NCBI GenBank assembly: GCA_964627205.1
Contig: CAZVHI010000003.1
Span: forward strand, 4,830 to 68,829
Reading direction: 5' to 3'
Length of the DNA: 64,000 nucleotides
Origin: an uncultured bacterium
GTDB lineage: Bacteria > Krumholzibacteriota > Krumholzibacteriia > JACNKJ01
The translations under genes were made by a program, and so were the position numbers. The notes under the pieces were generated by a model that made no database searches, was not told the origin of the DNA, and saw nothing but the letters and a program-made list of their open reading frames with translations. Position 1 is the first letter of the stretch. Each line of letters opens with the position of its first letter. Of this stretch, positions 6,991 to 54,402 are shown one piece after another.

Positions 6991-7164
6991 GAGCACCAGG
7001 GCCGCGGCGTTCTCCGCCTTGACGCCCCAGCCCGCCGCTGTCTGGTCCTGGGCCAGGACGGGACTCGCCGTCGCGGCCAGGCAGAGTCCGGCCAGGCCGC
7101 AGCCGGCGGCGCGGGAACCGATGAGACCGCTGCGGCGCTTGCGCGACAAGAGCAACTCCCGCAC
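6247..7164 (-). CDS. Secreted/membrane protein, paralog A of the tandem-duplicated pair, unknown function
   Basis: 305-aa ORF. Signal/TM region, then a conserved GLNAVEEAIGRSTELG...TCDYTLIGEELYAASAYLSREPVMLGCIKGQD domain, then a C-terminal helix. Its start codon overlaps the hisC stop by 1 nt (TGATG). Confidence 0.6.
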   Translation of the reverse strand: MRELLLSRKRRSGLIGSRAAGCGLAGLCLAATASPVLAQDQTAAGWGVKAENAAALVLFIVFTGVILVSIQLARRGRKLYVRRIAGLNAVEEAIGRSTELGKKVMYIPGIGSVGEVETLSSLAVLKHVAKHTAEYGTPLEVPNRDPLAYAAARETVKEAYLEAGRPDLFHEEMVPYLTYDQFAYTAQVTGRMVREKPAANFLIGSFFAESLLLAEAGQSTGAIQIAGTAQVAQLPFFVTTCDYTLIGEELYAASAYLSREPVMLGCIKGQDLVKFLLLILILAGILWYTLTGDPVVRELLQLGRG

Positions 7165-33991: not shown

Positions 33992-34081
33992 TAGGCATAT
34001 AAATAGCTCTATTGCAACGAATTATAAAGGCGAAGAAATCAGGCCCATGACCCCTTGACAACTAATTCACAAGCTTAGTAT

Positions 34082-34098
34082 GTTAACGCTCGTTAACG
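34082..34098 (+). promoter_or_regulatory. Direct repeat of palindromic GTTAAC hexamers upstream of the TetR gene, a candidate operator
   Basis: gttaacg-ctc-gttaacg lies 33-49 nt upstream of the TetR ATG in an AT-richer intergenic region. Confidence 0.35.
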
Positions 34099-34130: not shown

Positions 34131-34778
34131 ATGAACCCACCCAACAGAACCCGGAGCGATGGCGGACCCACTCCCCCGAGTCGCCGGGAGTGCCTGATCC
34201 AGAACGCTTGCCAGCTCTTCTCCGAGGCCGGCTTCGAGGGCACGACCGTCCGGCAGATCGCCCGCCAGTGCGGGATCACCGAGGCGGCCATCTACAAGCA
34301 CTTCGACAGCAAGAAGCACCTCTACGAAGAGGTGATCCACAGCAAGTCCCACCAGCACCAGATCGCGGCGCATCTCAAGGCGAAGCGCGGAGAAGGCGAC
34401 ATCGAGGGCGTTCTCTACACCGTTGCGCGGCACATCCTGGACACGGCCCGCAACGATCCCGAGCTGATCCGCATGCTGCTGTTCAGCAGCCTCGAAGGCT
34501 TCCGCAGCTCAACGCTCCTCTATAAGGAGTTCCGCCAGCCCTACATCCTCTTTCTCCGCGAGGAGCTCAAGGAGAGGATGGTTGCGGGCGAGATCCGCGA
34601 GGTCAATCCCTTCATCACCAGCCGCTGCTTCGTGGGCATGGTGATGGACTGCGCGCTGAACGTGGAACTGTGGAACAACCTCGAGAGCACGACCTACTCG
34701 GCGGAAAACGTGATGCACAACAACGTGCCGATCTTCGCCAAGGGGCTGAGGGTAGATGGATCCGCGCCAGGCGCGTAG
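34131..34778 (+). CDS. TetR/AcrR-family transcriptional regulator
   Basis: N-terminal HTH TTVRQIARQCGITEAAIYKHFDSKKHLY. 215 aa. Directly upstream of the cytochrome cluster, like the TetR-family OrfR/OrfS of Geobacter pcc clusters. Confidence 0.8.
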   Translation: MNPPNRTRSDGGPTPPSRRECLIQNACQLFSEAGFEGTTVRQIARQCGITEAAIYKHFDSKKHLYEEVIHSKSHQHQIAAHLKAKRGEGDIEGVLYTVARHILDTARNDPELIRMLLFSSLEGFRSSTLLYKEFRQPYILFLREELKERMVAGEIREVNPFITSRCFVGMVMDCALNVELWNNLESTTYSAENVMHNNVPIFAKGLRVDGSAPGA

Positions 34779-34796
34779 CGGACCCGAGCACGGAGG

Positions 34797-36218
34797 ATGA
34801 GAAGCATGAAGAGAATCCTGCCGGCACTGGCCGTCCTAGCCCTGATCGCAGCCGGAATCCACGGCTGCACCAAGGAGCGCGACAGCAATCCCTTCGGCAC
34901 GGGGAACGGCGACGGCGGCGAGGTGGACTGCCTCGCCTGCCACGGGGACGAGGAAATGCTGCGCGAGCTCTTGCCCGTGGAGGAAGGCCGCGCCGCGGTC
35001 TACACCAGGGGGGATGGCTGAGGCGGCGAGGTTCCCCCGCTGGAAGCGTGGGAGAAGGTCTACATCGGCGGCGCCAACGGGAACGCCTTCCTGAACGACG
35101 AGCGTCACGGCCCCGGCGCCCTGAGCTGCCTGAACTGCCACGGGAGCGAGAACACGGTCGGCGACTACGGCGAGCAGGTCGACATCCACGAGGGCGTGGT
35201 GAACGACCCCAGCGCCATCGGCGCCTGCGACGACTGCCACTCGTCGATCGCGGCCGCCACCGCGAACAGCCTGCACACGAACCTCTGGGGCGAGAGGAAG
35301 CTCATCGAGCAACGCGGTCAGTGCAACATCGCCGACTACGAGGACGGCTTCAACGCCAAGTGCAACGGCTGCCACACCACCTGCGGCCAGTGCCACATCA
35401 GCCGGCCCAACAGCGTGGCCGGCGGCTTCGTCAGCGCGCACAAGTTCCGCCCGACGCCCCACATGACCGACCAGTGCACGGCCTGCCACGGCAGCCGCGT
35501 CGGCATCGACTACCTTGGCGAGGCGGGCGGCGGCCTCGAAGGGAACGCGCCCGACGTGCACCGCAACCTGGGCTACCGCTGCGAGTACTGCCACAGCGCC
35601 GAGGAGATCCACGGCGACGGCCAGAGCACGAACGCCTCCGGCCACTACGAGCACCGCTACGAGGTGGCTACCATGCCCCGCTGCGAGGACTGTCACGGCG
35701 ACCAGCAGGGCGGGAACGACTACCATGGCGCCACGCACTGGGGCGCGCTCCAGTGCCAGGCCTGCCACTCGCAGCCCTACAAGAACTGCAGCAACTGCCA
35801 CCTGGAGACAGCCTGGGCGCGGGGCTTCACCATCGATCCCAGCGTCGCGATGCTCAAGATTGGCCTGAACACCCAGCCCGAGCTGCGCGACTACGAGTAC
35901 ACGATCGTGCGCCACGTGCCCGTCGCGCACGACACCTACGAGGCCTGGGGCCTGACGCTGCCGGCCTACGACGACATCCCGAGCTGGAAGTACGCCTCCC
36001 CGCACAACATCCAGCGCTGGACGGCCCAGACCGACACCACCGGCATGGCGGTGGGCGACGTCACCTGCGCCACGGCCTGCCACGGCAGCGGCAACGGCAC
36101 CGACAGCTTCTTCCTGCGGGAGGTCGACCTCTACGAGGAGGACGGGACGACGCCCCTGCCAGACTACGGGGCCAATCTGCCATACGTCGTGGCGGACGAC
36201 TGGCCGCCGGAGTTCTGA
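34797..36218 (+). CDS. Lipoprotein multiheme cytochrome c (about 11 CxxCH/CxxxCH motifs) with one in-frame TGA at 35019-35021; either a selenocysteine recoding site or a nonsense mutation
   Basis: Signal peptide with lipobox LIAAGIHGC and the first CxxCH (CLACH) precede the TGA. The same frame stays open through CLNCH and CDDCH into the ORF-track ORF 35196-36218 (whose GTG start is internal). No ATG/GTG/TTG start exists between the TGA and the CLNCH heme motif, and the downstream part has no signal peptide of its own. Confidence 0.55.
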
Positions 36219-36331
36219 TCGCTTTGCGGCCCGGCGACGGGTCGCGGGTCTGCGGCTGCGCTAGTAAGCGGACCCGAACGTCGATGTGAACGAGAAGGGC
36301 CCGGGAAGGGCCTAACAAAGGAGAGAAAGCG

Positions 36332-38215
36332 ATGCGAATGCGTTGGAGCCTTCTTCTGCTGCCCTTGCTGGCTCTGGGTCTGACGATGGGTTGCTCCGAG
36401 AGCACGACCCCGGTCGACACGCTCACCCCCGCGGAGCAGTTCGACGCCATGGTCGCCGCGGCGGAGACCTACATCAACGACGATACCCAGTGCCCCGGCG
36501 TGATGGCCGCCACCGCGCTGCAGGCGGACCTGGACAACTACACGGTCATCGACATCCGCTCCGAGGCCGACTACGACGCGGGCCATATCCCGGGGGCCTA
36601 CCACTCGTCCTTGGGCACCCTGCTCGCCGACCTCGGCACGCGGGCCATCCCCACGGACCAGAACATCGTGGTGGCCTGCTACACGGGACAGACGGCCGGT
36701 CACGCCAAGATCGCCCTGGAGATGCTCTACCCCGCCATAGACATCTTCAGCCTCAAGTTCGGGATGGCCGCCTGGAACGAGACGCTCACCGCCAAGTGGG
36801 ACAACAACTGCAAGGATGAGCTGACCAATCCCGACCAGACCGACGAGAATGGCAATCTCACGACCCACGACTTCCCCGGTTTCGATACGGGCGTGACGAA
36901 CGTGGACGAAGTGGTCCCCGCCCGCGTGGCCTGGATGCTCGGCGAGGGATTCAAGGCCAAGTCCTTCGACCAGATCAAGGACAACCTCGACGACTACTTC
37001 ATCATGAACTACTTCGGCCAGGCGGACTACCTGGGCCAGGGCGGCAGCGGCGTGCCGGGACACATCCCCGGCGCCTTCCAGTTCACGCCCTACGCGAGCC
37101 TGGGCAATGAGCAGATGCTGAACAACCTGCCCACGGAGCAGGACATCGTCGTCTACTGCTGGACGGGGCAGCACAGCAGCCAGGTCACGGCCTACCTGAA
37201 CATGCTGGGCTACACGGCCTTCAGCCTCAAGTTCGGATCCAACTACCTCTTCCACAGCGACCTGACCGGCCACAAGTGGAGCGCGGGCGCGACCAACGCC
37301 TTCACGCTCGAGAACACGGTCACGGCGCCCTTCAGCGGTATGGCGACGCCCGGCGGCGCCTACGTCAACGGCGGCACCTGCCCCGGCGTGATACTGGCCA
37401 CCGACCTCCAGGCCGACCTGGAGAACTATACGGTGGTCGACATCCGTGACGCGGCCGACTACGACGCGGGTCACATCGAGGGTGCCATCAACTCCTCGCT
37501 GGGCACGCTGCTGGCCGACATCGACGCGGGCACGATCCCGACCGACCAGGACATCGTCGTGGCCTGCTACTCCGGCCAGACGGCGGGCATCGCCAAGATC
37601 GCCCTGGACCTGCTCTACGACGACATCGACATCTTCAGCCTCAAGTGGGGCATGGCCTCCTGGAACTCCAGCCTCACCGGTCCCTGGGACGGCAAGACCG
37701 GCGCCAACGGCAACAACCTGGGCAACCCCAGCCAGGATGACGAGAACTCGAACCTGACCCGTCACGGCTTCCCGAAGCTGGAGGGCTACGACGCGGCGAC
37801 GGTGCTGGAGGAGCGCGTGGCCTGGATGCTCGCGGAGGGTCTCCAGGGCGTGCTGTACGCGAACATCGACCCGGACGACTACTTCATCGTCAACTACTTC
37901 GGCTACGACGACTACATGGGCCAGGGCGGCAGCGGCGTGCCGGGGCACATCCCGGGCGCCTACCAGTTCACGCCGGCCGCCAGCCTCGAGATGGACCAGA
38001 TGCTCTACAACCTGCCCCTGGACGAGCAGATTCTCGTCTACTGCTGGACGGGTCAGACGAGCGCTCAGATCACGGGCTACTTGCGCATGTTGGGTTACGA
38101 TGCATATAGTCTGAAATTCGGCTCGAACAACCTGTTCTACGACGACCTGACGGGCCACAAGTGGAGCGCAGCGCAGACCAACGACTTCCCGCTCGTCCCC
38201 ACGGCGCTGCCCTAG
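36332..38215 (+). CDS. Lipoprotein with four rhodanese-like (sulfurtransferase) domains arranged as an internal tandem duplication
   Basis: Lipobox LGLTMGC. Two roughly 300-aa repeats, each with two rhodanese modules. Active-site loops CYTGQTA, CWTGQHS, CYSGQTA and CWTGQTS. Rhodanese signature DIRSEADYDAGHIPGA. Confidence 0.75.
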   Translation: MRMRWSLLLLPLLALGLTMGCSESTTPVDTLTPAEQFDAMVAAAETYINDDTQCPGVMAATALQADLDNYTVIDIRSEADYDAGHIPGAYHSSLGTLLADLGTRAIPTDQNIVVACYTGQTAGHAKIALEMLYPAIDIFSLKFGMAAWNETLTAKWDNNCKDELTNPDQTDENGNLTTHDFPGFDTGVTNVDEVVPARVAWMLGEGFKAKSFDQIKDNLDDYFIMNYFGQADYLGQGGSGVPGHIPGAFQFTPYASLGNEQMLNNLPTEQDIVVYCWTGQHSSQVTAYLNMLGYTAFSLKFGSNYLFHSDLTGHKWSAGATNAFTLENTVTAPFSGMATPGGAYVNGGTCPGVILATDLQADLENYTVVDIRDAADYDAGHIEGAINSSLGTLLADIDAGTIPTDQDIVVACYSGQTAGIAKIALDLLYDDIDIFSLKWGMASWNSSLTGPWDGKTGANGNNLGNPSQDDENSNLTRHGFPKLEGYDAATVLEERVAWMLAEGLQGVLYANIDPDDYFIVNYFGYDDYMGQGGSGVPGHIPGAYQFTPAASLEMDQMLYNLPLDEQILVYCWTGQTSAQITGYLRMLGYDAYSLKFGSNNLFYDDLTGHKWSAAQTNDFPLVPTALP

Positions 38216-38331
38216 GAAGTCCGATCCCCGGCCTCGCGCCGGCGATCGTGGTTTAGGATTTGGCTATAGCTGTCGACGGAAGAAGGGGGGCTCTGCCCCC
38301 CTTCTCTCCGGCACAAGGATAGGGTGCAAGA

Positions 38332-40314
38332 ATGCGAAACGGCGACACTCATCTGAAAACTGTTCTGGCGCTTCTGCTCGTGTCCATCATGTTCGCTCTC
38401 GCAGGCACGTCCGTGAGCGCGGAGGAGTGGAGCACCGACGACTGCGTGGACTGCCACGCGGAGCCCGACGAGGACACCGTCGAGGTGACGCGGGCACACC
38501 TGGCGGACGGCGTTCACGCCGACTTCGAGTGCATGGACTGCCACACGGAGATCGACGACCTGCCCCACGAGGAGGAGCTCGCACCCACCGACTGCGGCGA
38601 ATGCCACGAAGACGAGGAGGAGGTCTACACGAAGCACGGCCGCGGCGTCATCGGCGTGGACGACACCATCCCCACTTGTGTGGAATGCCACGGCACCCAC
38701 GACATCCGCGAAGTCGAGGACAAGGGATCGCTGGTCAACCCGCTGAACCTTCCCTCCACTTGCGGCACTTGCCACGAGGACGAGGCCTTCACCGAGGAGC
38801 AGCAGATCCGCTTCAAGCACCCGGTGCGGGTCTACGCCAACAGCGTCCACGGCCGCGCGGCCGTGGGCGGCATCTACTCGGCGGCCACCTGCAACGACTG
38901 CCACTCCACGGACGGCAGCGCGCACCAGATCCTGTCGCCCGGCGACATCCGCTCGACGATCAACCACTTCAACATCTCGGCGACCTGCGGGCGCTGCCAC
39001 AAGTACATCGAGCAGGACTACCGCGAGGGCATCCACGGCGAACTGACCGAGCGCGGCCAGGTGGAGTCGCCCATCTGCACGACCTGCCACGGCGAGCACA
39101 ACATCCTCCCCACCGACGACCCGCGCTCGCCGGTCAGCGCCCATCGTCTCGCCGAGGCCACCTGCACCCCCTGCCACGAGTCGGCCTCCCTGAACGAGAA
39201 GTACGAGCTGCCCACGGGCCGCCTACACTCCTTCCAGGACTCCTATCACGGGCTCAAGAGCAAGGCGGGCGATGTAACGGTGGCCAACTGCGCCTCCTGC
39301 CACGGCGCGCATCGCATCCTTCCGTCCACCGACGAGACGTCCACGATCTTCCCGGCCAACCTGCAGCGCACCTGTGGCGGCTGCCACCCCGAGATCTCGA
39401 TGGAGATCGCCCAGATGTCCATCCACGAGGCCGCGGGCCTGCATACGGGCATCGCGGGGCTCGTGCGCAAGATCTACCTCATCCTGATCTTCGTCGTGAT
39501 CGGCAGCATGGCCATCCACTGGCTCATCGACCTGCGCCACCAGATCAAGCAGGTCATGAACAAGAAGAACCAGGTGCGGCGCATGGACGGGGACGAGGTG
39601 GTCCAGCACTTCATCCTGGCCCTGTCCTTCACCGTTCTCGTGGTGACGGGCTTCTCCCTGCGCTTCTATGACTCCTGGTGGTCGGAGATGATGTTTGGCT
39701 GGGAGGGCGGCTACACCTTCCGCGGGACCGTGCACCGCTTCGCGGGCGTGGTGCTGCTGCTGGCATCAGTCTGGCACACGATCTTCCTGTTGACTGCGCG
39801 CGGGAGGATCTTCCTGAAGGACATGTGGCCGAGCTTCAAGGACTTCAAGCAGTTCATGCAGATGAATGCCTACAATCTCGGAGTGAGCAAGGACCACCCC
39901 CAGTTCGCGCGCTTCTCCTACGTGGAGAAGGCCGAGTACTGGGCGCTGGTCTGGGGCACCGTGGTGATGGGGATCACGGGCCTGTTGCTCTGGTTCGACA
40001 ACGTCGCGGTCAACTGGATGCCCAAGGGTGTGCTGGACGTGATGCTCGTGATCCACTACTACGAGGCCTGGCTGGCCTTCCTGGCCATTCTCATCTGGCA
40101 CATGTACTCGACTGTCTTCAGTCCCAAGGTCTACCCGATGAATCCCTCCTGGCTGACGGGCAAGATGCCGGAGTCCCAGTTCCTGGCTGAGCATCCCCTG
40201 GCAGTGGCGGCGAGCAACATCGACAAGATCGACTACATCAAGGCCCACCCCGAAGAGGGACGGGCCGGTACTGGCAATCCGGAGGGGAAGTCCGAGGAAG
40301 ACGCCGTCGACTGA
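38332..40314 (+). CDS. CbcL-like fusion: periplasmic multiheme cytochrome c domain (11 CxxCH) plus C-terminal membrane di-haem cytochrome b (FdnI/HydC-like) domain
   Basis: Signal/anchor LKTVLALLLVSIMFALAGTSVSA. Eleven CxxCH motifs from CVDCH to CGGCH. Then 4-5 TM helices with conserved His (HFILALSFTVLVVTGF, HRFAGVVLLLASVWH, VIHYYEAWLAFLAILIWH). Confidence 0.75.
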   Translation: MRNGDTHLKTVLALLLVSIMFALAGTSVSAEEWSTDDCVDCHAEPDEDTVEVTRAHLADGVHADFECMDCHTEIDDLPHEEELAPTDCGECHEDEEEVYTKHGRGVIGVDDTIPTCVECHGTHDIREVEDKGSLVNPLNLPSTCGTCHEDEAFTEEQQIRFKHPVRVYANSVHGRAAVGGIYSAATCNDCHSTDGSAHQILSPGDIRSTINHFNISATCGRCHKYIEQDYREGIHGELTERGQVESPICTTCHGEHNILPTDDPRSPVSAHRLAEATCTPCHESASLNEKYELPTGRLHSFQDSYHGLKSKAGDVTVANCASCHGAHRILPSTDETSTIFPANLQRTCGGCHPEISMEIAQMSIHEAAGLHTGIAGLVRKIYLILIFVVIGSMAIHWLIDLRHQIKQVMNKKNQVRRMDGDEVVQHFILALSFTVLVVTGFSLRFYDSWWSEMMFGWEGGYTFRGTVHRFAGVVLLLASVWHTIFLLTARGRIFLKDMWPSFKDFKQFMQMNAYNLGVSKDHPQFARFSYVEKAEYWALVWGTVVMGITGLLLWFDNVAVNWMPKGVLDVMLVIHYYEAWLAFLAILIWHMYSTVFSPKVYPMNPSWLTGKMPESQFLAEHPLAVAASNIDKIDYIKAHPEEGRAGTGNPEGKSEEDAVD

Positions 40315-40335
40315 CGGGCCGCTCGAGGGTCTACG

Positions 40336-40378
40336 AAAAACCGGGTTCGGCCAGCGTGGCCGAGCCCGGTTTTTCTTC
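40336..40378. terminator. Bidirectional rho-independent terminator between convergent cytochrome genes
   Basis: aaaaa-ccgggttcggcc-agcgt-ggccgagcccgg-ttttt: a 12-bp stem with one G-U pair, flanked by an A-run and a T-run. Confidence 0.65.
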
Positions 40379-40396
40379 GCCTGTCAAGAGCGGAGC

Positions 40397-40993
40397 CTAC
40401 TTGTCGTCGGCGGCCTTCCTCGTCTCGGCGTAGTTCTCGGGATAGGGGTGGGCGATCTCCTCCGACCGCTTCTCGTAGTCGAACTCCTTGAAGGTCGGGC
40501 TGTCGGAGTTGTGACAGGCCGTGCAGGTCTCCTCGGTCACCTCGAGGAGCCCCACCGAGGCGGCCTCGATCGCGCCATCGTAGATGCCCTTCATGGTCTT
40601 CTTCTTTTTGTAGCCGCTACCGGGACCGTGGCAGCTCTCGCAGGAGACGCCCTCCTCGAGCGTGATCTTCTGGGTCGCCAGGTCGGCCATGACGGGGAAC
40701 GCCGTCACGTGGCACTTCAGGCAATCCGCCTCTTCCTGCGGATTGCCGAGCCCCAATTCCGCGGCGATGGTCTTGGACTCTTCGCTGGCCAGGGTCGCGT
40801 AGGCGCCGGCGTGCACACCCTCGGACCAGGACAGGTACTGGGCACCAATCTTCTCCTTTTTGTGGCACATCTTGCACTTCTTGACGCCGACGTAGTTGTA
40901 CTCCTCCTCGGCCGCGAAGGCGAATCCAGCCAGTAGCCAGGTCAGAGCCAGGGCGCCAGTGAGAAGCGCCATGAGTGTTTTCTTCGCAGACAT
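40397..40993 (-). CDS. Periplasmic tetraheme cytochrome c
   Basis: Start at MSAKKTLMALLTGALALTWLLAGFAFAAEEEY (signal peptide). Four CxxCH motifs (CKMCH, CLKCH, CESCH, CTACH). The ORF-track extension to 41374 was rejected. Confidence 0.7.
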   Translation of the reverse strand: MSAKKTLMALLTGALALTWLLAGFAFAAEEEYNYVGVKKCKMCHKKEKIGAQYLSWSEGVHAGAYATLASEESKTIAAELGLGNPQEEADCLKCHVTAFPVMADLATQKITLEEGVSCESCHGPGSGYKKKKTMKGIYDGAIEAASVGLLEVTEETCTACHNSDSPTFKEFDYEKRSEEIAHPYPENYAETRKAADDK

Positions 40994-41061
40994 CACTTGC
41001 AGTCCTTTCTTCTCGAGTTCTCCCGCTCTCCCCGCGGGTCGCTTGCCCCGCCCGTCCCGTC

Positions 41062-41706
41062 TTATTCGCCCATGCCCGGATGGCAGCCGCCGCAGAGACT
41101 CGGGGGCAAGCCCTCGTGACAGAGGATGCAGCTCCCGAGATCCGCCCGGCCCTCCATCGCGTGCCGGCCGCCGCTGCCGGAGACCCACTCCGCGGAGTAG
41201 TGGTCGCTCGGCTGAATGCCGAAGCTGGCGTGGCAGTCCGTGCAGTAGCTTCGCAGGTCGTGGCAGCTCGCGCAGTCCTCGCTTCCCTTTAGCGCCGTCA
41301 TGGCGTGCGTGTAGAACCAGTTGCGGTCGTGCGCCAGGAAGTCCACGTTCTCGCCGTGGTGGCACATGCTGCACTCCTCCGACTCGCGATGACAGAGGGC
41401 GCAGTCCATGTCTCCGCCGCGCACATTATACTGATGTCCGTGCAGAAAGTCTCCCCAGTGGCTGCTGGGCCTCTCGGGCAGTGTCACCAGCACGTTCTCG
41501 TCCTCGTCGTGGCAGTCCAGGCAGACGCCGGGGCCGGGCAGCGCCGCTCGCCGCGGCAGCCCGCCGCCCGCGAGGGAGTGGCATTCGGTGCAGTCCATCT
41601 CCGCGTCTTCGAGATGAACCTGATGGTCGAAGACATCGGCACCGATGCCGCCGACGGGAACGAGCATCAGGAGCGCGGCCGCCAAGATCCAGGCTGTCTT
41701 ACTCAT
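41062..41706 (-). CDS. Periplasmic octaheme cytochrome c
   Basis: Signal peptide MSKTAWILAAALLMLVPVGGIGA. Eight CxxCH motifs (CTECH, CLDCH, CALCH, CSMCH, CASCH, CTDCH, CILCH, CGGCH) in 214 aa. Confidence 0.75.
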   Translation of the reverse strand: MSKTAWILAAALLMLVPVGGIGADVFDHQVHLEDAEMDCTECHSLAGGGLPRRAALPGPGVCLDCHDEDENVLVTLPERPSSHWGDFLHGHQYNVRGGDMDCALCHRESEECSMCHHGENVDFLAHDRNWFYTHAMTALKGSEDCASCHDLRSYCTDCHASFGIQPSDHYSAEWVSGSGGRHAMEGRADLGSCILCHEGLPPSLCGGCHPGMGE

Positions 41707-43060
41707 CGCTCACCTCCTGCCCCGGCGCGACTCGGAAGCGATAAGCGACGCGGCCGAGGAACCTCAGCTGGTGCTCGGCCCGTGGGTTCCTGAGCAACTC
41801 GACGGCGGTGGTGACATCGAAGCGGTCCGCGAGAGTGGCATCCAGCCCCAGGCGCGTGGCCAGGGACTCGTCGTCGACCACGAGCTCGTCCTCGAGGTCG
41901 TCGACCTCGCCGTAGCGATAGTAGACCTTGTTCAGGTCCAGCCAGAGGGCGACGCCATCGGTCAGTTCGTAGCGGACCTTGCCGTAGATCCCGTCCTGGT
42001 CGCCCCCGAAGCCGCGCTGCAGGCGGTAGCCGAAGGCGTAGCCGGGCCGCGAGAGGCCAATGCTGAGGCCGTCTCCACGCTTTTCGCCCTCGGGGAAGAC
42101 CTCGATCAGGTGCAGGTTGATCGTCCAGCCCGGAAGCAGGCGGCAAGGCTGCGACATGTGGGCGCGGACCTCGTCGGTGAGCTGTAGAAAGTTGCCCGTG
42201 AACCAGATCCGATCCTGGAAATATCGGGCGATGTAGGACTGGTCGGCCGACGGCGCGAGGCCCTCGCGCCGGTTCCACGCCAGGCTCGCCGAGCCCTGCT
42301 TAAATCGGTAGTCGAGGCGCAGGTGACGGTGGTAGGCCACCTCCTGCCCCAGGTCGTAGCGGTGCTCGTAGCGCAGGGCCACCGAATCGCGGGGACGCCA
42401 CAGGGCCAGCAGGCCCAGGCGGCGCCCCTCCTCCTCGCCCCCGCGGAAGAGACGGGCGGCGCTGACGCCGAAGCCCAGCCCCGCGGGCAGGGCGGCGCTG
42501 CGATAGGCGGCGCCCCAGAGGCCCGACTCGTCGAAGGCGTCGGTTGCCAGACCCTCGAAGCCGTCGCCCGCGGGATCCAGGAAGCCCCGCGTGCCGCCGA
42601 AGAGGGTCAGACGCCCCAGCCGCGCGTCGGTGAGCTGGAGGCGCGCCCCGTCGAGGCGACCGCTGCCGACGCCTGCGTAGACCCACTGGCGCCCCAGCGC
42701 CAGCAGCGCGTTCGGCCGGGGCCGAAAGCGCAGGTAAGCATGGTAGGCGCGCGCGCGCGACTTGCCGATCCCCTCTTCCAGCACCTCGCCCCGGTGCGTA
42801 CCCAGCCAGTGCAGCGAGAGCGAGGGGTGTCCCAGCTCACGCGCGTCGAGGGAGACGCGCTGGATGAAGTCCCAGTGCTTCTCCTGACCGGGCGGGAAGG
42901 TCTCGTAGACGAAGGACGAACTGGTGACGCGACCGTCCAGCTCCAGGGCCTTCGCCCCGCCGAAGGTCATGGCCCCCGCCGCGATTGCGAGCAGGAAGAC
43001 CGTGCGCCGTTTTCGCCAGGCCCCCGCGGGCGACGGATCGTATCGTTTCAACATCCTCAT
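41699..43060 (-). CDS. Predicted outer-membrane beta-barrel protein, a candidate porin partner of the cytochromes
   Basis: Signal peptide. 453 aa rich in alternating aromatic/Gly/Arg beta-strand-like segments. Its stop overlaps the octaheme cytochrome start by 8 nt. No named domain recognised. Confidence 0.5.
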   Translation of the reverse strand: MRMLKRYDPSPAGAWRKRRTVFLLAIAAGAMTFGGAKALELDGRVTSSSFVYETFPPGQEKHWDFIQRVSLDARELGHPSLSLHWLGTHRGEVLEEGIGKSRARAYHAYLRFRPRPNALLALGRQWVYAGVGSGRLDGARLQLTDARLGRLTLFGGTRGFLDPAGDGFEGLATDAFDESGLWGAAYRSAALPAGLGFGVSAARLFRGGEEEGRRLGLLALWRPRDSVALRYEHRYDLGQEVAYHRHLRLDYRFKQGSASLAWNRREGLAPSADQSYIARYFQDRIWFTGNFLQLTDEVRAHMSQPCRLLPGWTINLHLIEVFPEGEKRGDGLSIGLSRPGYAFGYRLQRGFGGDQDGIYGKVRYELTDGVALWLDLNKVYYRYGEVDDLEDELVVDDESLATRLGLDATLADRFDVTTAVELLRNPRAEHQLRFLGRVAYRFRVAPGQEVSDE

Positions 43061-47703: not shown

Positions 47704-50700
47704 CTACTTCGCGCCCACCTTCGTCACTCCGATGGTCTCGTAGACCGACATCTTGCCCTCGGTGTCCCAGACCAGGACGCCGATGCGGTGATCGCCGTCC
47801 TCCCAGCCGTTGATGTTGAAGGTGGTCATGAAGTAGCCGTCGTACTGGCCGCCGACCTCGGGATCCCACGCGATGTCGAAGGGCGGGTCGGCCGGCATCG
47901 GCCAGCCGTAGTCGTCGATGTAGAACTCCACGTAGTCGATCTCGGTGCAGTGCCAGTCGGAGGGGTTCACGACGATGTCGATCACGGACTGCTCGTCGGC
48001 GTTGAGCTCGTCACCCTGCTGCGGGGTGATCCAGTCCTCGGGAGCCATGAAGGGTCCCTCGCCGTCGACGATGTTGATCGTGTGCGTCACCTGCGCCGTG
48101 TTGCCCTCGGTGTCCTGCACCCAGACCGTGGCTTCCAGGATGGTCCCGGCCGCCAGGCACTCGGTGGAGAGCATGTAGTCGAAGCCCTCCAAGACTTCCG
48201 GAGGCGCCGCGTCGTTCACCGGGTTCGGATAGTTCGAAACGAAGACCTGGCTCAGGAGCACCGGCGGAATCCCGGTGACGTCGACCACCTCGAAGGTGCC
48301 GTCGGTCCAGTACCAGATGTCGCTCACGTCGAAGCTGAACTCGATCTCCGTGCCGCCCTCGTCGCTGAGGTCGGCGGGCAGGAAGTCGGTGATATCGGGC
48401 GGGTCGTCGCCGTAGATGTGCAGCTCGTTGTCGGTCGAGCTGATCCCGCACTCGTCCTCGATGGCGTACTGGACGCAGAGGTCACCCACGCCGTAGTCCT
48501 CGGTGTGGATGATCACCGGGATGTTGTCCGGGTTGTCCTCCTCCCAGGGCATCACGCAACCCCAATCCCAGTAGTAGTTCGAGATGAGGTCGCCGTCGTT
48601 GGAGAAGCTGCCCTGATAGGTGACGTCGGTCCCGAACAGCACCCAGGCTTCCGGGCCGCCACTGACGTTGGTCCAGAAGGCCAGATCCCATGGCACGTCG
48701 TTCTTCGTCACGCAGATGCTGCCGTCGAAGCCGACCTCGTAGGAGTTGCCGTTGGGCTGCGCGAGGTCCCAGACCCTGGCGCCGAAGCAGAACTCCGTAC
48801 CCGCGGGATAGATCATCGGGTCGTAGCTCCACATGTAGAACGCTTCGCCGCCGATGATCGAGTTGTCCGTGCCGACCAGAGTGTAGCCCCCGCCGTCGAT
48901 GGAGACGTAGAAGTCCACGCGGTCGAGATTGCCATCACCGTAGTTGTCCGCGATGCCGTCGACCATGAGCCCCAGTGGCGAGCTGATGCAGGTCGTGCCG
49001 TCAGGCGGTCCGACCCAGCCCATCGTCGGCGGTGTGTTGTCGATGTAGATGTCGGAGGTGTCGAAGGCGCCCTCGCCGATGTTGCCGGGCGTGGTGCCGT
49101 CGCCGGTGTACTCGTCCTCCACCGTCACCCCGATGGTGTAGACACCCTCGCTGGCGTAGGCGTGGGTGGCCGCGAAGACGTCCTCGCCGAGGTACTCCGT
49201 CCCCGTGCCGTCATCCCAGTCGACCCAGATGTAGATGTGCTCGTTGTCGTCCGAGATGTAAGGCCCGAAGTCCACCACCGCCTGGTAGGGGCTCGGCTGG
49301 AACACACCGTAGTCGCCCGGCAGGTTCACCACCGGCGCGTCCGACTTGTAGACGATGAAGGTATCCGACCCGGTCAGGCCGCCGAGGTCGTAGGCACGGG
49401 CCTCGATCTCCACGAGACCGCCGGGGTAGCCGGTGAAATCGATGTCGACCGGGAAGTTGGGCTGGGTCCAGGACTCGCCCATCTTCACGCCGCCGACGTA
49501 GTACTCCACCTTCTCGACCTCGGGCATCGTGCCGCGGTCGTAGGTGCCGGCCGGATCCACCTCGAAGGGCTCGAGGCCGGTCAGCACGTCGCCCGGACGC
49601 GGCACCAGGAAGAGCACGTCGGGCGTCGTCACGTCCTCGATCTCCACGTAGACGGAGGTGGTCCGCTCCAGGTCCGTGTTGTCCCTCACGAGGAGAGTGA
49701 CCCAGTAGCCGCCGTAGCCGTCGCCGGAGGCGAAGTAGTCCCAGTCCACCGGATCCGGATCGGTCGTGTCCAGATCGTAGGAGCCGTCGCCGTTGAAGTC
49801 CCACCGATAGAGGTCGATGGCGCCGCCCGCGCCGCCGTTCTCGTCGTCGTGGGACGCGAAGGCGGAGAAGGACAGCTGCAGGGACGTCTCGTCGGTCCAG
49901 TCGCCGTTCACCGGCTCCGGATCGATCTCCGCGTGGGGCGGATCGCTCTTGTAGACGTTGATCGTCACGAGCGGGAAGGACATGTTCGGCGGCGGTACCG
50001 TGAAGTCGTAGGCGATGGCGGTCATCGAGTACGGGCCGCTGTCCATGCCGTCCCAGTCGAAGTCGAAGCCGTGGACGACCGCGTTGTCCCACGGATCGGG
50101 GTTCGTCCAGCTCAGGGTCTCCGAGAAGCTCCCGCCGTCCTCGATGACCAGCTCCAGCATGTCCAGGATGCCGGCGTCGCCGTCGTGCTCGTCGATGGCG
50201 TCGACGATGTAGTCCATGTTCGCGCCGTACTGGGCGCCCCAGCCCTCGATGTCGAGCGCCAGATCCATGGGCTCGCCGTCATCGGCCTCCAGGCTGTTGA
50301 CCACGGGGTTCGTGGTGTCGGCGATGGAAACGCGGCAGACCGCCTCGTCGGTGAAGCCCGCGCTGTTCTCCACGGTCACGCGGCAGTCGTACATGCCGAT
50401 CGCGTAGGTGTTGGTCGCCGTGGGAAGGGTCGTGGTCTCGTCGATCACGCCGTTGTCGTCGAAGTCCCAGTGGTAGAAGTCGATCTGGTCGCAGTCGTCG
50501 TAAGCCGTCACCGTGAATGTGATGTCGCTCGGGTTGGTCTCGCCCGCATAGCGGTCGGAGCCGAACTCCGTGCCGTAGGGAGGCCCGCCGAGCTTGGTCA
50601 CGAGGATCTGGTTCACGCCGCCGGCGCTGGTGTTCCCGTTCACGTCAGTGACCGTGGCCCAGAGGTAGTACTCCTGGCAGTCCCAGCCGGCCGTGTTCCA

Positions 50701-53700
50701 GATGAAGCACCAGCCGTGCTCCCACTCGTCGTCCGCGTACAGGGTCTCGATGACCGTGCCGGCCGCGTAGAAGGTGATGTAGTCGACCTCGGGGCCGCTG
50801 TCGCGGTCGATGATCGGGCCGATCACACAGATCTCGGTGGTGAGCTGGAACTCGTCGGGAGTGGCCTTGATCTCCACCGCGTCCGGTGCAGTGCAGTCGG
50901 AGATCTCTACCACCACCGGGTCGCTCCAGGCGATGCGGCCGGTCGCGTCGGTGCCGATGAGCCGCGCCGAGTAGAAGCCGTACTCGGGGAAGTGCCAGAC
51001 CCAGGGCAGCTCCGGCATGTTCTCGATCGACTCCTCCGGGAGCTCGTCCGCGTCCACCCAGTTGGGATCGCCGAGACCCGTGAAGGGACCGGAGAAGCTC
51101 CAGCCGTAGCCGAACTCCGCGACGCCGTTGTCGTCGACGATCGACCAGCCGTCGAAGGCGACCGGGATGCCGCCGTTGACGTAGTCGTAGGGCGCGCAGT
51201 CGTTCGTGTAGGTGATGTCCGGCAGGGTCACGCAGGGCAGGTCGCTTTTCACGACCTCATCACTCGCCTGGGTCCAGTTACCGGCCACGTCGTAGATGCG
51301 GTAGTAGATCTCCCAACCCGCGGCCGAATCGACCCAGTTCTCGCCGCAGTACGGCTCGTAGTCGAAGGGCTCGACGCCGTCGATCTGCCAGACGTAGGGG
51401 CTCGACGTGTGGGAGAAGTCCCCGAACTCGCCATTTGCCCAGCCATAGTAAGTGAGCGTGCCGAAGTCGAGGTCCGAATAGCAGGCCCATCCCATCCAGT
51501 CCTCGGCGGCGTGGATCACGTCGGCCGTCCCGCTGACCAGGTGGGTCCCGGGGTAGCCCTCGAAGTCCACCACGTCGAAGTCGGTGATGACGGGCGCGTC
51601 GTTCTCCATCGTCAGCGTCCAGGTCTGCATGACGTAGGGCAGCTGGTAACCGGTGTCGGTCGTCTCGCGGACGCGAACGGCCAGCGTGTAGTCCACGCAC
51701 CACTCGTCGTAGTAGTCGAGCCACACGTTCTCGCCCGTCTCGTCCACCGAGAAGCTGCCGCTGTACTCGAGGTCCCACTCCACCAGGTAGCTGCTGGGCG
51801 TCGGGTTGCCGCCCCAGACGTTGTCGTCGGTGTAGTTCAGGCTGAAGTTGGGCTCGAGCTCGTTGGCCCAGGCGTGCTCGCCCACCGCGAAGCCGCGATC
51901 GGGCTGTCCGCCGATGTGGCGCGTGATGCCGGTGATGACCGGCAGGTCGGACTTGTAGATCCGGCGCGTCGCCATCGGGCCGTTGTTGCCCGAGTTGTCG
52001 GTGGGCAGGGCCAGGAGATCGTAGTAGTCGCCGGTCGCCGGCAGGTCCTCGCCCTCGAAGTTGCAGGTCCAGGCCGCGCCGTCGGCGTCCGTGCAGATCT
52101 CGCCGGTCGCGCCGCCGTTGACCTGGTCGTAGCTGAAGGCCACCTGCGCGATCGCGGGGAACCAGTTGTCACGGTCGGAGCCGGACACGGCGAGGGCCAC
52201 AGGCACGTTGTGGTCGCCGATCACCGAGTCGACCGCCGGGGCCGTGAACCAGATATCCGGGCCGATCACGTCTTCGATGAAGATGTCCTGACAGCCGGAA
52301 CCCACGATGTCGTAGATGTCCCGGACGTCGACGCAGACCTGGTAGTCCCCGTAGCCGAGCGTGAAGTCGAAGTCGACCATGTTGTAGGAGTCGCCCTCGT
52401 ACCACACGCCCTGCTCGAGCTCGAGGCCGCCGGTCGTGTAGACCGTGGCCGCGGGATCGGTGGGGCAGGTCCACATGAAGTCCAGCGGCGCCTGCTGCTC
52501 GTGGTTGTCGTCCCAGGACTCGTGGGCGTCGATCCGGACGATCCATTCCTCCGGATCGAGCACGGTGTAGGGACCAAAGAAGGGCACCGGCGCGCAGGTC
52601 TTGATGAAGTCGACCAGCGAGCTCAGGTCCGTCTGTCCGTTGGACAGGTAGGCCTTGGCGTAGATGCGAAGCTCGCCGCCCTCCATGTCGGTGATGTCGT
52701 AGGCCACGCTCCAGCCGCCGGCCTCGCTCGTATCCTCGCCGAAGTAGGTCTCGTCACCGGCGAAGAAGAACTGCACCTTGTCGACGGTGATGTCGCGCTG
52801 GGCGATGGCCGCCTTGGGGTCCTCGCTGCGCGTGGGCGGCAGGAACTCGACGGTGGCCGTGAAGTCCACGGGGCCGCAGAGCAGCTCGTCCGGCGCGGGC
52901 GTGGTCACTGTGACGAGGATGTCCGCGAAGCAGTCCACGATGAAGGGCACCGCGGCGCTGTTGTAGCTGGCCTCGTCGGAGAGGTAGGCCACCGCGTGCA
53001 CGTTGTGGCCGCCCTCGGGCATCTGCGCGGCGCAGGGATCGTACTGGAAGGTCCACTCGGGGCCCTCGTAGTCGATGCCGAAGGGGGCGGTCTCGGAGTC
53101 GAAGTAGAACTCGACCCGCTCGACGTCGGGCAGCTCGCGCGTGTCGAAGGTCACGCTCGCGGTGAAGATGAAGCTGCCGCTGATGTCATGGTTCTCGATG
53201 GGCGCGATGATCGCCACGACCGGCTCCGGACAACTGTAGGCGATGTCAGTGAGCTCGTCGTTGCCGACGTTGCCGCACTGGTCCGTGGCCGCCGCGCCGA
53301 TGGTGTAGTCGCCATCGCCGTCGAACCAGGCCGCGTCGACGACGAAGGAGTAGGTGTTCTCGCCGAGATCCGTGTAGTCGCAGGACACCGAGTCGGCATC
53401 GACGAAGAGGACGAGGCTCGCGAGAGTGTTCGCTTCCACCACCTCGACGAGCAGTTCGTCGCCGGAGCAGAAGAGCTGATCACCCTCGGGCGGCGTGATC
53501 GCCACCACCGGCGCCGTCTCGTCGTTCCAGACATCCACCGTGAACACGGGGTTGTCCGCGTCGCCGTGGTTGCCGGCCGTGTCGAAGGCATCGATCGTGA
53601 TCTCGACCCCCAGAGCCGCGGCGATCGGGTCGATGCCGGTGAAGGTAAAGTCGTATGCGCTGTCGCTCGTCCCGGGCTCGTCGACCGCAACCTCGACGCC

Positions 53701-53940
53701 GTCCACGTAGAGGACGACCTTGTCGATGTTGGATGCTTCGTCGGTCGCCGTGCCTGTGATCTCGAGCGGCTCACAGAGCAGGTCGCCTTGCCTGGCGGGC
53801 GAGTAGAAGTTGGTCTGCACGTTGCTGATCACCGGGGGGGTGTCGTCCGTCGGCCCAGTGACCTCGTCGTCACTGCACCCCCAGACCAGCAGAGCTACGG
53901 CCAGGATGGTGACAAAGCCGAAAAGTAGTTTTCGTGCCAT
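47704..53940 (-). CDS. Giant (about 2078 aa) cell-surface lipoprotein with multiple PKD/Ig-like repeats
   Basis: Start at MARKLLFGFVTILAVALLVWGCSDD (signal peptide with Cys lipobox). PKD-like signatures YHWDFDDNGVIDETTTL...YDCRVTVEN, YRWDFNGDGSYD and WVDWDDGTGTEY...YTIGVTVED. Extremely Asp/Gly/Thr/Tyr-rich. Antisense ORFs of more than 2000 aa on the + strand are GC artefacts. Confidence 0.7.
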   Translation of the reverse strand: MARKLLFGFVTILAVALLVWGCSDDEVTGPTDDTPPVISNVQTNFYSPARQGDLLCEPLEITGTATDEASNIDKVVLYVDGVEVAVDEPGTSDSAYDFTFTGIDPIAAALGVEITIDAFDTAGNHGDADNPVFTVDVWNDETAPVVAITPPEGDQLFCSGDELLVEVVEANTLASLVLFVDADSVSCDYTDLGENTYSFVVDAAWFDGDGDYTIGAAATDQCGNVGNDELTDIAYSCPEPVVAIIAPIENHDISGSFIFTASVTFDTRELPDVERVEFYFDSETAPFGIDYEGPEWTFQYDPCAAQMPEGGHNVHAVAYLSDEASYNSAAVPFIVDCFADILVTVTTPAPDELLCGPVDFTATVEFLPPTRSEDPKAAIAQRDITVDKVQFFFAGDETYFGEDTSEAGGWSVAYDITDMEGGELRIYAKAYLSNGQTDLSSLVDFIKTCAPVPFFGPYTVLDPEEWIVRIDAHESWDDNHEQQAPLDFMWTCPTDPAATVYTTGGLELEQGVWYEGDSYNMVDFDFTLGYGDYQVCVDVRDIYDIVGSGCQDIFIEDVIGPDIWFTAPAVDSVIGDHNVPVALAVSGSDRDNWFPAIAQVAFSYDQVNGGATGEICTDADGAAWTCNFEGEDLPATGDYYDLLALPTDNSGNNGPMATRRIYKSDLPVITGITRHIGGQPDRGFAVGEHAWANELEPNFSLNYTDDNVWGGNPTPSSYLVEWDLEYSGSFSVDETGENVWLDYYDEWCVDYTLAVRVRETTDTGYQLPYVMQTWTLTMENDAPVITDFDVVDFEGYPGTHLVSGTADVIHAAEDWMGWACYSDLDFGTLTYYGWANGEFGDFSHTSSPYVWQIDGVEPFDYEPYCGENWVDSAAGWEIYYRIYDVAGNWTQASDEVVKSDLPCVTLPDITYTNDCAPYDYVNGGIPVAFDGWSIVDDNGVAEFGYGWSFSGPFTGLGDPNWVDADELPEESIENMPELPWVWHFPEYGFYSARLIGTDATGRIAWSDPVVVEISDCTAPDAVEIKATPDEFQLTTEICVIGPIIDRDSGPEVDYITFYAAGTVIETLYADDEWEHGWCFIWNTAGWDCQEYYLWATVTDVNGNTSAGGVNQILVTKLGGPPYGTEFGSDRYAGETNPSDITFTVTAYDDCDQIDFYHWDFDDNGVIDETTTLPTATNTYAIGMYDCRVTVENSAGFTDEAVCRVSIADTTNPVVNSLEADDGEPMDLALDIEGWGAQYGANMDYIVDAIDEHDGDAGILDMLELVIEDGGSFSETLSWTNPDPWDNAVVHGFDFDWDGMDSGPYSMTAIAYDFTVPPPNMSFPLVTINVYKSDPPHAEIDPEPVNGDWTDETSLQLSFSAFASHDDENGGAGGAIDLYRWDFNGDGSYDLDTTDPDPVDWDYFASGDGYGGYWVTLLVRDNTDLERTTSVYVEIEDVTTPDVLFLVPRPGDVLTGLEPFEVDPAGTYDRGTMPEVEKVEYYVGGVKMGESWTQPNFPVDIDFTGYPGGLVEIEARAYDLGGLTGSDTFIVYKSDAPVVNLPGDYGVFQPSPYQAVVDFGPYISDDNEHIYIWVDWDDGTGTEYLGEDVFAATHAYASEGVYTIGVTVEDEYTGDGTTPGNIGEGAFDTSDIYIDNTPPTMGWVGPPDGTTCISSPLGLMVDGIADNYGDGNLDRVDFYVSIDGGGYTLVGTDNSIIGGEAFYMWSYDPMIYPAGTEFCFGARVWDLAQPNGNSYEVGFDGSICVTKNDVPWDLAFWTNVSGGPEAWVLFGTDVTYQGSFSNDGDLISNYYWDWGCVMPWEEDNPDNIPVIIHTEDYGVGDLCVQYAIEDECGISSTDNELHIYGDDPPDITDFLPADLSDEGGTEIEFSFDVSDIWYWTDGTFEVVDVTGIPPVLLSQVFVSNYPNPVNDAAPPEVLEGFDYMLSTECLAAGTILEATVWVQDTEGNTAQVTHTINIVDGEGPFMAPEDWITPQQGDELNADEQSVIDIVVNPSDWHCTEIDYVEFYIDDYGWPMPADPPFDIAWDPEVGGQYDGYFMTTFNINGWEDGDHRIGVLVWDTEGKMSVYETIGVTKVGAK

Positions 53941-54402
53941 CTTTTCTCTCCTTACCACAGTCCTTGAGCTTCGGTAGCTCTTAGTGGAACTCCGGCAACT
54001 TTCCCTCACCCGTCCGGGAGAAGGTGTAATTGTATTCCCGTGCAACTCGTTATCTGCGGGCTCTAAACCCGCGTATCTCCTCGCCACATACCGGCATGGC
54101 AGAAGGCGCCACCCGCCGAGTGGACGCTAACCTGGACAGCAAACTCCTTTGAAAAACCTTTGTCAAGGAGTTTAGGACCCGGCGGTTGCCATTCATGATC
54201 CCGCTGGGATCGGGCTCTCCGCCCTCTCGGGTCGTTCCCGTTTCTAGCGGATGAAATGAATTCAAGCAACTGTTTTCGTCCCTAGTTAAGCCGGCGTAAA
54301 AGATGCGGAATACGCACTTGCTCCCCGCCGCGCTCAGGCGCTAAGTATGTCTCGTGGCGCCGAGTTCCCCGGCGTCGAATCCAAGCCCGGGAGCTGCGTC
54401 CG

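Follow-up and report, generated by a model that had tools for sequence, protein, structure and literature searches.

Four rhodanese domains in one lipoprotein: a candidate sulfur carrier encoded beside a candidate selenoprotein cytochrome in an uncultured bacterium of the Krumholzibacteriia

The stretch of DNA analysed here (the window) comprises 64,000 nucleotides of contig CAZVHI010000003.1 from an uncultured bacterium of the Krumholzibacteriia, and the gene under study, at 36332-38215 on the forward strand, encodes a lipoprotein of four rhodanese domains and lies among genes for multiheme cytochromes. Each domain keeps a cysteine that is invariant among full-length homologues, the gene directly upstream encodes an 11-heme lipoprotein that is a credible selenoprotein, and further electron-transport genes are located with the pair. 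Judged by these features and by analogy with characterised systems, the protein is likely to be a functional sulfur carrier coupled to the adjoining cytochrome chain. For the more specific proposal, in which it would carry polysulfide sulfur to a selenocysteine (Sec)/Cys cytochrome acting as a chalcogen reductase on polysulfide or elemental sulfur (S0), the chances appear about even. Coupling of a rhodanese sulfur carrier to a respiratory chalcogen reductase is already known as such, and what is probably new is the combination of activity in all domains, amplified copy number, a lipid anchor, probable surface exposure and a candidate selenoprotein partner in the position of MtrC.

The 627-residue open reading frame (ORF) begins with ATG, has an AGGAG ribosome-binding site 8-9 nt upstream of it, and has a GC content at third codon positions (0.93) on par with that of the other genes in the window. 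Its N-terminus, MRMRWSLLLLPLLALGLTMG-C21, has a basic beginning followed by a hydrophobic stretch and the cysteine of a lipobox (LTMG-C21), and the Pfam family Rhodanese (PF00581) matched the product in four stretches, with an overall E-value of 3.3e-43. The two halves of the protein are repeats, as unit 1 (residues 31-325) and unit 2 (residues 328-623) share 61.5% amino acid identity (score 926), and at the DNA level nt 36454-37306 and 37347-38191 are 75% identical over 875 columns. Because equivalent domains are 73% identical (D1/D3 and D2/D4), whereas the two domains of one unit share 32-39% (D1/D2, 39%), the layout is A-B-A'-B'. A preliminary description of this DNA, which had proposed a secreted lipoprotein with four rhodanese domains arising from internal tandem duplication, with repeats at about 36420-37290 and 37300-38215, is borne out by the lipobox, by the Pfam annotation it had suggested as a check and by the identity of the two halves, and its repeat boundaries agree with the DNA alignment.

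The four active-site loops are CYTGQTA (C116), CWTGQHS (C276), CYSGQTA (C412) and CWTGQTS (C571), exactly as the preliminary description had quoted them. Searching 5.8 billion proteins for homologues gave 274 relatives with E <= 0.001, and conservation was assessed on the 98 full-length sequences (590-670 aa, 38-64% identity to the query) among the best 120 of these. All four loop cysteines were invariant (98/98), within the consensus C-Y-[ST]-G-Q-[ST]-A-G-H in the odd-numbered domains and Y-C-W-T-G-Q-[HT]-S-S-Q in the even-numbered domains. The loops are of the six-residue sulfurtransferase type, C-x-x-G-x-x-[A/S], and not of the seven-residue CX5R phosphatase type; loop length and invariant cysteines together led us to reject a dead or phosphatase-like rhodanese. 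The loop geometry, for which structure prediction had been proposed, was examined in an AlphaFold2 model built from the homologue alignment, with a predicted local distance difference test score (pLDDT) of 94.2 and a predicted template modelling score (pTM) of 0.75. Each of the four cysteines sits in the model at the passage from a strand to a helix, the canonical rhodanese active-site position; in unit 1, strand 111-115 precedes C116 and helix 120-132, and strand 271-275 precedes C276 and helix 279-291. On sequence and model, all four modules are apparently catalytically competent. Since all four cysteines are invariant in the 98 homologues, no module appears "inactive-like", and the earlier suggestion that each unit pairs an inactive-like module with an active one did not hold, both domains of each unit keeping the cysteine. 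A few divergent relatives with type IX secretion system (T9SS) tails (P0012, P0052 and P0115) have glycine in place of cysteine; these are not orthologues.

By its predicted fold and its active-site features the protein is a member of the rhodanese superfamily, of the sulfurtransferase type. Foldseek against the PDB returned only sulfurtransferases (1yt8, 6mxv, EanB, RhdA, TST, MST and YnjE), and in a profile search of PDB sequences GlpE (2e-9) and PspE (3e-9) scored far better than Cdc25 (6e-4) and Sud (1qxn, 7e-4). In classical tandem rhodaneses (TST/MST/RhdA) the catalytic cysteine is found in the C-terminal domain only, in loops of the form CRKGVT or CG[ST]GVT. Bovine TST, RhdA, SseA/MST and the three-domain periplasmic YnjE share the fold and the tandem arrangement with the window protein and were matched by Foldseek, but the window protein keeps a cysteine in every domain, and the TM-scores on the query are 0.14-0.18, values that indicate, and would be explained by, a different packing of the domains. 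A classical tandem rhodanese with an inactive N-terminal domain was ruled out, as both domains of both units carry the invariant cysteine. The Pseudomonas aeruginosa protein 1YT8 likewise has four rhodanese domains in one chain and was the best Foldseek match (E 5e-13) and the second-best profile match; however, it is only 18% identical, with TM-scores of 0.17-0.20, and comes from structural genomics, with no known connection to cytochromes.

A literature search found no earlier description of this rhodanese family or of the rhodanese-cytochrome gene pair. Members in the Krumholzibacteriia, Bacteroidota and Kapaibacteria have one, two, three or more units per protein. In Bacteroidota, Kapaibacteria/Chlorobiota and others a single two-domain unit (~330 aa) is usual, whereas two units prevail in the Krumholzibacteriia and are also found in Marinifilum and other Bacteroidales, and three-unit proteins (P0002, P0003 and P0107) have six loops. 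One unit was used to scan 1.84 billion cluster representatives exhaustively with HMMER, which yielded 1838 matches at E <= 1e-3 and 140 at E <= 1e-30. Among these are distant relatives of the unit, giant membrane-anchored poly-rhodaneses (P0245, P0246, P0247, P0248 and P0259) that carry 7-16 near-identical CYTGHTA loops (8, 10 and 16 among them) and reach 2327 aa (P0245). Neighbour joining often grouped both units of a protein together and placed the Marinifilum duplication apart from that of the Krumholzibacteriia. Units 1 and 2 inside a protein had a mean identity of 66.9% (maximum 86.5%), compared with means of 57.6% and 53.6% for the same unit between proteins; because the halves are more alike than the same unit across proteins, duplication was either repeated or followed by homogenisation through gene conversion. 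The valency, that is, the number of active domains, seems to be under selection, with which the repeated growth in copy number, over one, two and three units up to 16 loops, agrees. This would be a family of rhodaneses with all domains active and with loop numbers from 2 to at least 16.

The signal sequence marks the window protein as extracytoplasmic, and the lipobox cysteine column is present in 97 of the 98 full-length homologues. Behind the lipidated cysteine the family consensus is S-D-D-D-D, and in 95 of 97 homologues two or more of the residues at positions +2 to +6 are acidic. In the lipoprotein export signal of Bacteroidota type, acidic residues at +2 to +6 come after a polar one (SDDDD or K-(D/E)2), and SDDDD is the surface-export signal of Bacteroides fragilis lipoproteins, where it was shown to drive surface exposure (PMC5080379). 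Some relatives have an ordinary signal peptide and a FlgD_ig/T9SS tail in place of the lipobox. The SDDDD signal and these tails point to the cell exterior as the location of the family, and for most members the sequence C-S-D-D-D-D suggests a place on the outside of the outer membrane. For the window protein itself, which departs from this consensus, surface exposure is an inference, one which supposes that an export signal known from Bacteroides fragilis would be read in the same way by a host of the Krumholzibacteriia. One T9SS-tailed variant (P0038) has no cytochrome neighbours, and the gene upstream of it encodes a heme-free membrane protein. A matrixin-like peptidase encoded in the window at 9062-10672 (+) has at its C-terminus a FlgD_ig domain, the tail that also occurs on secreted rhodanese relatives.

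When the gene directly upstream is read through an in-frame TGA, its product is a 473-aa lipoprotein with the lipobox IHG-C and 11 heme motifs, ten CXXCH and one CX3CH. In an alignment of 12 sequences the TGA column held TGA in 7/7 genes of Krumholzibacteriia type and Cys in 5/5 genes of Bacteroidota/Kapaibacteria type, the site motif was G-[U/C]-G-G-[E/D/T], and every heme motif was kept. A hairpin resembling a selenocysteine insertion sequence (SECIS) follows the TGA and is kept in five loci with two compensatory stem pairs (C-G to G-C and C-G to A-U); the window copy has a C-U mismatch at one of the stem pairs (column 19/31). The single-sequence fold of the window region 3' of the TGA was no better than that of shuffles (z -0.08), so the hairpin draws its support solely from comparative analysis. 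Because a hairpin with compensatory changes lies 3' of the TGA, the column can credibly be taken as a genuine Sec/Cys pair and the cytochrome as a strong new selenoprotein candidate; the 11-heme lipoproteins, with their clean alternation of Sec and Cys, would then form a new candidate selenoprotein family. Gene callers break the Sec-type genes into an ORF of 73-77 aa and another of 340-400 aa, and most database homologues start right after the TGA. The cytochrome matched no curated NCBIfam equivalog and no PDB sequence, and many of its homologues matched the Pfam family of MtrC/MtrF domain II/IV. No sel genes (selA/selB/selD) and no tRNA-Sec were found in the 64-kb window, which is a small sample of the genome.

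Five full-length relatives of the cytochrome (P0188, P0190, P0225, P0226 and P0229) have Trp, Gln or a deletion at the Sec site, not Cys, and the Trp codon is one base away from TGA; these relatives may be paralogues that have lost the site, or sequencing or assembly variants. Many fragments of the cytochrome are labelled by JGI as 'thiosulfate/3-mercaptopyruvate sulfurtransferase' though they have heme motifs only, probably through annotation spill-over from the adjoining rhodanese gene or a mis-assigned KEGG Orthology (KO) entry.

The preliminary description had placed the rhodanese gene between cytochrome genes, and this is indeed the case, with the 11-heme lipoprotein upstream and a fusion of an 11-CXXCH domain to cytochrome b downstream. 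It had also considered that homologues might never be associated with redox genes; among about 30 related loci inspected, 22 have multiheme cytochromes or an ExtI-like porin nearby. Fifteen loci, namely the window and L001, L003, L005, L008, L009, L011, L012, L014, L015, L022, L027, L039, L040 and L041, share one context (type A), in which a homologue of the upstream 11-heme cytochrome lies directly 5' of the rhodanese gene, in three lineages and at 31-57% identity. The pairing is as tight where the cytochrome is of the Cys type (L009, L011, L012, L014, L015, L022 and L027). The type A loci of the Krumholzibacteriia usually have, further 5', a DmsE-family decaheme cytochrome (MtrA-like, 185 bits), a barrel of 610-646 aa (PF11854 MtrB_PioB in L041) and a TetR regulator, and those of Bacteroidota/Kapaibacteria have homologues of the c554-like, CbcL-like and octaheme proteins, as in the window. 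A second context (type B) was found in seven loci, L002 (Marinifilum), L006, L007, L010, L019, L021 and L024; the hosts of L002, L006, L010, L019 and L024 belong to the Bacteroidales, Rhodothermaceae and Saprospiraceae. The full type B set comprises two cytochromes, one of the octaheme tetrathionate reductase (OTR) family (TIGR04315, 577 bits) and one of b type, and two rhodaneses besides the family member, one with a single domain and one ExtH/MST-like (E 9e-20), together with an ExtI-like porin (E 7e-17). The individual loci hold subsets of this set, with the ExtI-like porin as the constant element, and in L006 and L024 other 11-heme cytochromes take the place of the OTR-family one. About eight further loci have neither set of neighbours, some of them being contig ends. 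In a crude independent check, 24 contigs, matched by identical length, were common to the best-120 lists of the rhodanese and cytochrome families. Several relatives come from sulfidic springs and caves, judged by their sample labels (Zod_/ZodW_ and SulCav_). Type B loci have up to three different rhodaneses each, and the cytochrome b of Marinifilum has a PAS domain.

In Wolinella succinogenes, the periplasmic rhodanese Sud uses a single cysteine to carry polysulfide sulfur to the polysulfide reductase Psr. Sud has one domain and is a soluble homodimer, and Psr is a molybdoenzyme. An extracytoplasmic rhodanese that feeds a respiratory reductase is our working model for the window protein too, although this protein has four domains and a lipoprotein signal, and its match to Sud (1qxn) amounts to 21 bits. 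No molybdoenzyme such as PsrABC was found among the genes scanned at 34131-43060 or in the related loci inspected, where the partners are c-type cytochromes. Membership in the Sud group was ruled out by the score, the four domains, the lipoprotein signal and the missing molybdoenzyme partner. Therefore, of the likeness to Sud-type polysulfide-sulfur transferases that had been pointed out for this gene, the mode of action remains reasonable, whereas membership does not stand, GlpE and PspE being closer in sequence.

A second comparison is offered by Geobacter sulfurreducens, whose MccSep (ExtKL), a pentaheme selenoprotein, is a polysulfide reductase required for S0 respiration and the first Sec-heme polysulfide reductase, published in August 2026 (PMC13510729). 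It uses Sec together with a heme-ligating Cys and reduces selenite too, less efficiently than polysulfide, and its authors described as unknown both how sulfur reaches the enzyme and which components, if any, transfer it (PMC13510729). The MccSep gene lies in the ext cluster with genes for the rhodanese lipoprotein ExtH and the porin ExtI (PMC13510729; PMC5877670). The window resembles this cluster in having a rhodanese lipoprotein beside a Sec multiheme cytochrome, together with genes for an outer-membrane barrel and an inner-membrane cytochrome b. The lipobox, the Sec/Cys cytochrome directly 5' and the barrel at 41699-43060 make up a gene set that is ext-like in its arrangement. Several differences stand beside these similarities. 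The window protein scored 16.7 bits (E 0.0028) against the ExtH family (NCBIfam NF040901), over the N-terminal 90 residues only, and the cut-off of 200 bits rules out membership; unlike ExtH, it has four active domains, and the conduit at sister loci is MtrA/MtrB-like and not ExtI-like. MccSep is described as a soluble periplasmic protein with five hemes, Sec325 after heme 5 and a Cys that ligates heme 2 (PMC13510729), and this description sets it apart from the window cytochrome, a lipoprotein with 11 heme motifs and Sec 75 between hemes 1 and 2. The system at the window would thus be analogous, but is not demonstrably homologous, to ExtH/MccSep of Geobacter and Sud/Psr of Wolinella.

Considering these results and comparisons, we propose a plausible model. 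The four cysteines would capture zero-valent sulfur from polysulfide or elemental sulfur and hold it as persulfide or polysulfide, so that the rhodanese lipoprotein would act as a multivalent sulfur carrier presenting sulfur to the adjacent 11-heme lipoprotein, whose conserved Sec/Cys would cleave the S-S bond with electrons from the quinol pool. In the window, electrons might pass from the 11-heme/cytochrome b fusion to the c554-like and octaheme cytochromes and on to the beta-barrel; in sister genomes the route might be the MtrA/MtrB-like conduit. Sulfur-respiring Desulfurella has abundant rhodaneses (PMC6378623). In this model the substrate, the transfer of sulfur from one protein to the other and the direction in which electrons run are inferred, and several observations weigh against it. 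The loops contain no Arg or Lys, unlike those of TST, which uses thiosulfate. About a quarter of the related loci have no cytochrome nearby (L013, L018, L023, L025, L026 and L037). The window protein is one of only two outliers in its export signal, with C-S-E-S-T-T and a single acidic residue (36395-36412), so that it may face the periplasm, lacking the acidic signal, and may be sorted otherwise than its orthologues. The direction of electron flow cannot be read from a sequence, and the chemistry of the upstream cytochrome is proposed by analogy only, since no sequence similarity to any solved protein was detected for it and its architecture differs from that of MccSep.

Of the other explanations, reduction or detoxification of selenite or tellurite, in which selenium bound to the rhodanese as perselenide or selenotrisulfide would be reduced to Se(0) by the cytochrome, was the first proposal for the Geobacter ext cluster, and NCBIfam names the ExtH and ExtI families 'selenite/tellurite reduction operon'. 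The ExtI-like porin and ExtH-like rhodanese that flank the Marinifilum homologue fit this explanation, as do the impaired reduction of selenite and tellurite in an ExtI mutant (PMC5877670) and the selenite activity of MccSep, which nevertheless prefers polysulfide and has S0 respiration as its physiological role (PMC13510729). Selenite is scarce, whereas the cluster is widely conserved, multi-gene and of respiratory type, and the ExtH score of the window protein is far from the cut-off; we regard this explanation as unlikely. Mtr/PioAB-type conduits are able to run inward, and this, with the occurrence of relatives in sulfidic habitats, would suit an oxidative direction, with sulfide, thiosulfate, S0 or metal sulfides as sources of the sulfur that the rhodanese mobilises and with electrons passing inward through the cytochromes to the quinone pool. 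Sulfur chemistry at hemes of His/Cys type is also oxidative in TsdA and SoxAX (discussed in PMC13510729). However, no Sox, Sqr, Dsr or other sulfur-oxidation genes were found in the window or the inspected loci, and the closest worked example, MccSep, is reductive, so that an oxidative role too has little probability. A slimmer chance is held by an accessory role in thiosulfate or tetrathionate respiration, with the protein shuttling sulfane sulfur freed from those anions: type B loci do pair the family member with the OTR-family cytochrome, cytochrome b, the ExtI-like porin and two other rhodaneses, but the window and all Krumholzibacteriia loci have the Sec/Cys cytochrome and no OTR-family gene, and the basic residues that are typical of rhodaneses binding thiosulfate are missing from the loops.

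Slimmer still is the probability that the protein is a general periplasmic rhodanese for thiol/redox tasks or detoxification (PspE-like, or serving cyanide removal or cytochrome maturation) with incidental cytochrome neighbours. PspE and GlpE are its nearest characterised sequence relatives and some members lie away from cytochromes, yet adjacency to one cytochrome family has been kept in three lineages at the identities given above, and the repeated expansion of active domains is hard to square with a housekeeping role. Rhodanese domains also handle selenium, in MnmH/SelU, and Sec insertion is co-translational and takes place in the cytoplasm. The preliminary description had connected the gene with selenium through its neighbour, and a part of this stands, as the Sec codon of that neighbour is credible in view of the TGA/Cys distribution and the hairpin, and the even-numbered domains bear a weak resemblance to the loop region of MnmH. 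Trafficking of selenium for Sec incorporation into the cytochrome is nonetheless very improbable, because cytochromes of the Cys type keep the same partner equally strictly and because the rhodanese is exported whereas Sec is inserted in the cytoplasm; the lack of sel genes and tRNA-Sec in the window, a small sample, also speaks against it.

Returning to polysulfide and S0 reduction, how poorly soluble elemental sulfur is respired was a question for decades, and the locus would represent, in other phyla, a parallel system to that of Geobacter whose component for sulfur transfer is explicit, always encoded alongside and amplified. The sister loci further resemble Shewanella MtrCAB/DmsEFAB in having the DmsE-family decaheme and the MtrB_PioB barrel directly 5' of the genes for TetR, Sec-cytochrome and rhodanese; they differ in that a Sec/Cys cytochrome, with a rhodanese beside it, takes the place of MtrC or DmsAB as terminal lipoprotein, and the window itself lacks an MtrAB-like pair. 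This would link Mtr-type extracellular electron conduits to sulfur or selenium chemistry. We tentatively suggest, as a possibility that we consider less likely than not, that bacteria of the Fibrobacteres-Chlorobi-Bacteroidetes (FCB) group (Krumholzibacteriia, Bacteroidota and Kapaibacteria) respire solid S0 or insoluble chalcogens at the cell surface, with an MtrAB-type or porin-cytochrome conduit supplying an outward-facing 11-heme Sec/Cys lipoprotein reductase and a surface poly-rhodanese acting as a multivalent 'sulfur antenna' that opens S8 or polysulfide and passes the chains to the Sec site. If so, the cytochrome would be the second Sec-heme sulfur reductase, with an architecture unlike that of MccSep, and the first extracellular one, and the gene pair would serve as a marker of sulfur respiration in uncultured Krumholzibacteriia and in Bacteroidota of sulfidic habitats. 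Cultivable carriers exist (Marinifilum), but their type B (OTR/ExtI) loci are without the Sec/Cys cytochrome.

Table 1. Features of the locus, in window coordinates.
Feature	Coordinates	Strand	Basis and remarks
Sigma-70-like promoter match	34055..34084	+	10/12, consensus match only; possible start of a transcription unit 5' of TetR
TetR-family regulator	34131..34778	+	Pfam TetR_N E 8e-17; equivalent position in L001, L003, L005, L039 and L041
11-heme lipoprotein cytochrome	34797..36218	+	Heme motifs, lipobox IHGC; candidate Sec 75 in G-D-G-U-G-G-E-V
In-frame TGA, candidate Sec codon	35019..35021	+	Alignment with Cys homologues
SECIS-like hairpin	35034..35052	+	8-bp stem, GGA loop; 16-34 nt after the U of UGA
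Four-rhodanese lipoprotein	36332..38215	+	ORF, Pfam, homologue alignment, AlphaFold2 model
Signal peptide and lipobox (LTMG-C21)	36332..36394	+	Sequence; Cys column kept in 97/98 homologues
Repeat unit 1	36422..37306	+	D1 36497-36787, C116 at 36677-36679; D2 36947-37267, C276 at 37157-37159
Repeat unit 2	37307..38212	+	D3 37385-37675, C412 at 37565-37567; D4 37832-38152, C571 at 38042-38044
11-CXXCH domain fused to cytochrome b with five transmembrane segments	38332..40314	+	Ni_hydr_CYTB E 1e-12, c7/c3 domains, heme motifs, hydrophobic segments
Terminator-like hairpin	40358..40371	+	3' of the cytochrome b fusion gene
Tetraheme c554-like cytochrome with signal peptide	40397..40993	-	Pfam Cytochrome_C554 E 2e-15, four CXXCH
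Octaheme cytochrome	41062..41706	-	Pfam and heme motifs; homologues in L014 and L015
453-aa probable outer-membrane beta-barrel	41699..43060	-	AlphaFold2 pLDDT 60.6, ~22 strands; top Foldseek matches all outer-membrane barrels

The product of the fusion gene downstream of the rhodanese gene also gave a formate dehydrogenase gamma-like match in NCBIfam and is a putative quinol:cytochrome oxidoreductase, CbcL-like by its architecture. No terminator match was found on the + strand between 34131 and 40314, and the three minus-strand genes, for the c554-like cytochrome, the octaheme cytochrome and the barrel, converge on this unit from TetR to cytochrome b. Homologues of the c554-like cytochrome adjoin the gene pair in L011, L014, L015 and L022. 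The barrel gene and the octaheme gene overlap by 8 nt, at the 3' end of the former and the start of the latter. The barrel has no Pfam or NCBIfam match and only four homologues in the 5.8 billion sequences, and it shows no sequence relation to the 637-aa barrel of L001; a tblastn search of the window with the L001 proteins found no MtrA/MtrB-like genes. The barrel and the octaheme cytochrome form a porin-cytochrome-like pair whose barrel family is absent from Pfam and NCBIfam.

A perfect GC-rich inverted repeat, GGCCC-ggaag-GGGCC, with no T-run on the + strand, lies at 36298-36312, within the 113 nt that separate the cytochrome gene from the rhodanese gene, and could be an RNA-stabilising or processing hairpin. 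Elsewhere on the minus strand, the window encodes a 2127-aa Big_7/PKD surface protein (47704-54087) and two adjacent DUF6754 paralogues (5151-6092 and 6247-7164).

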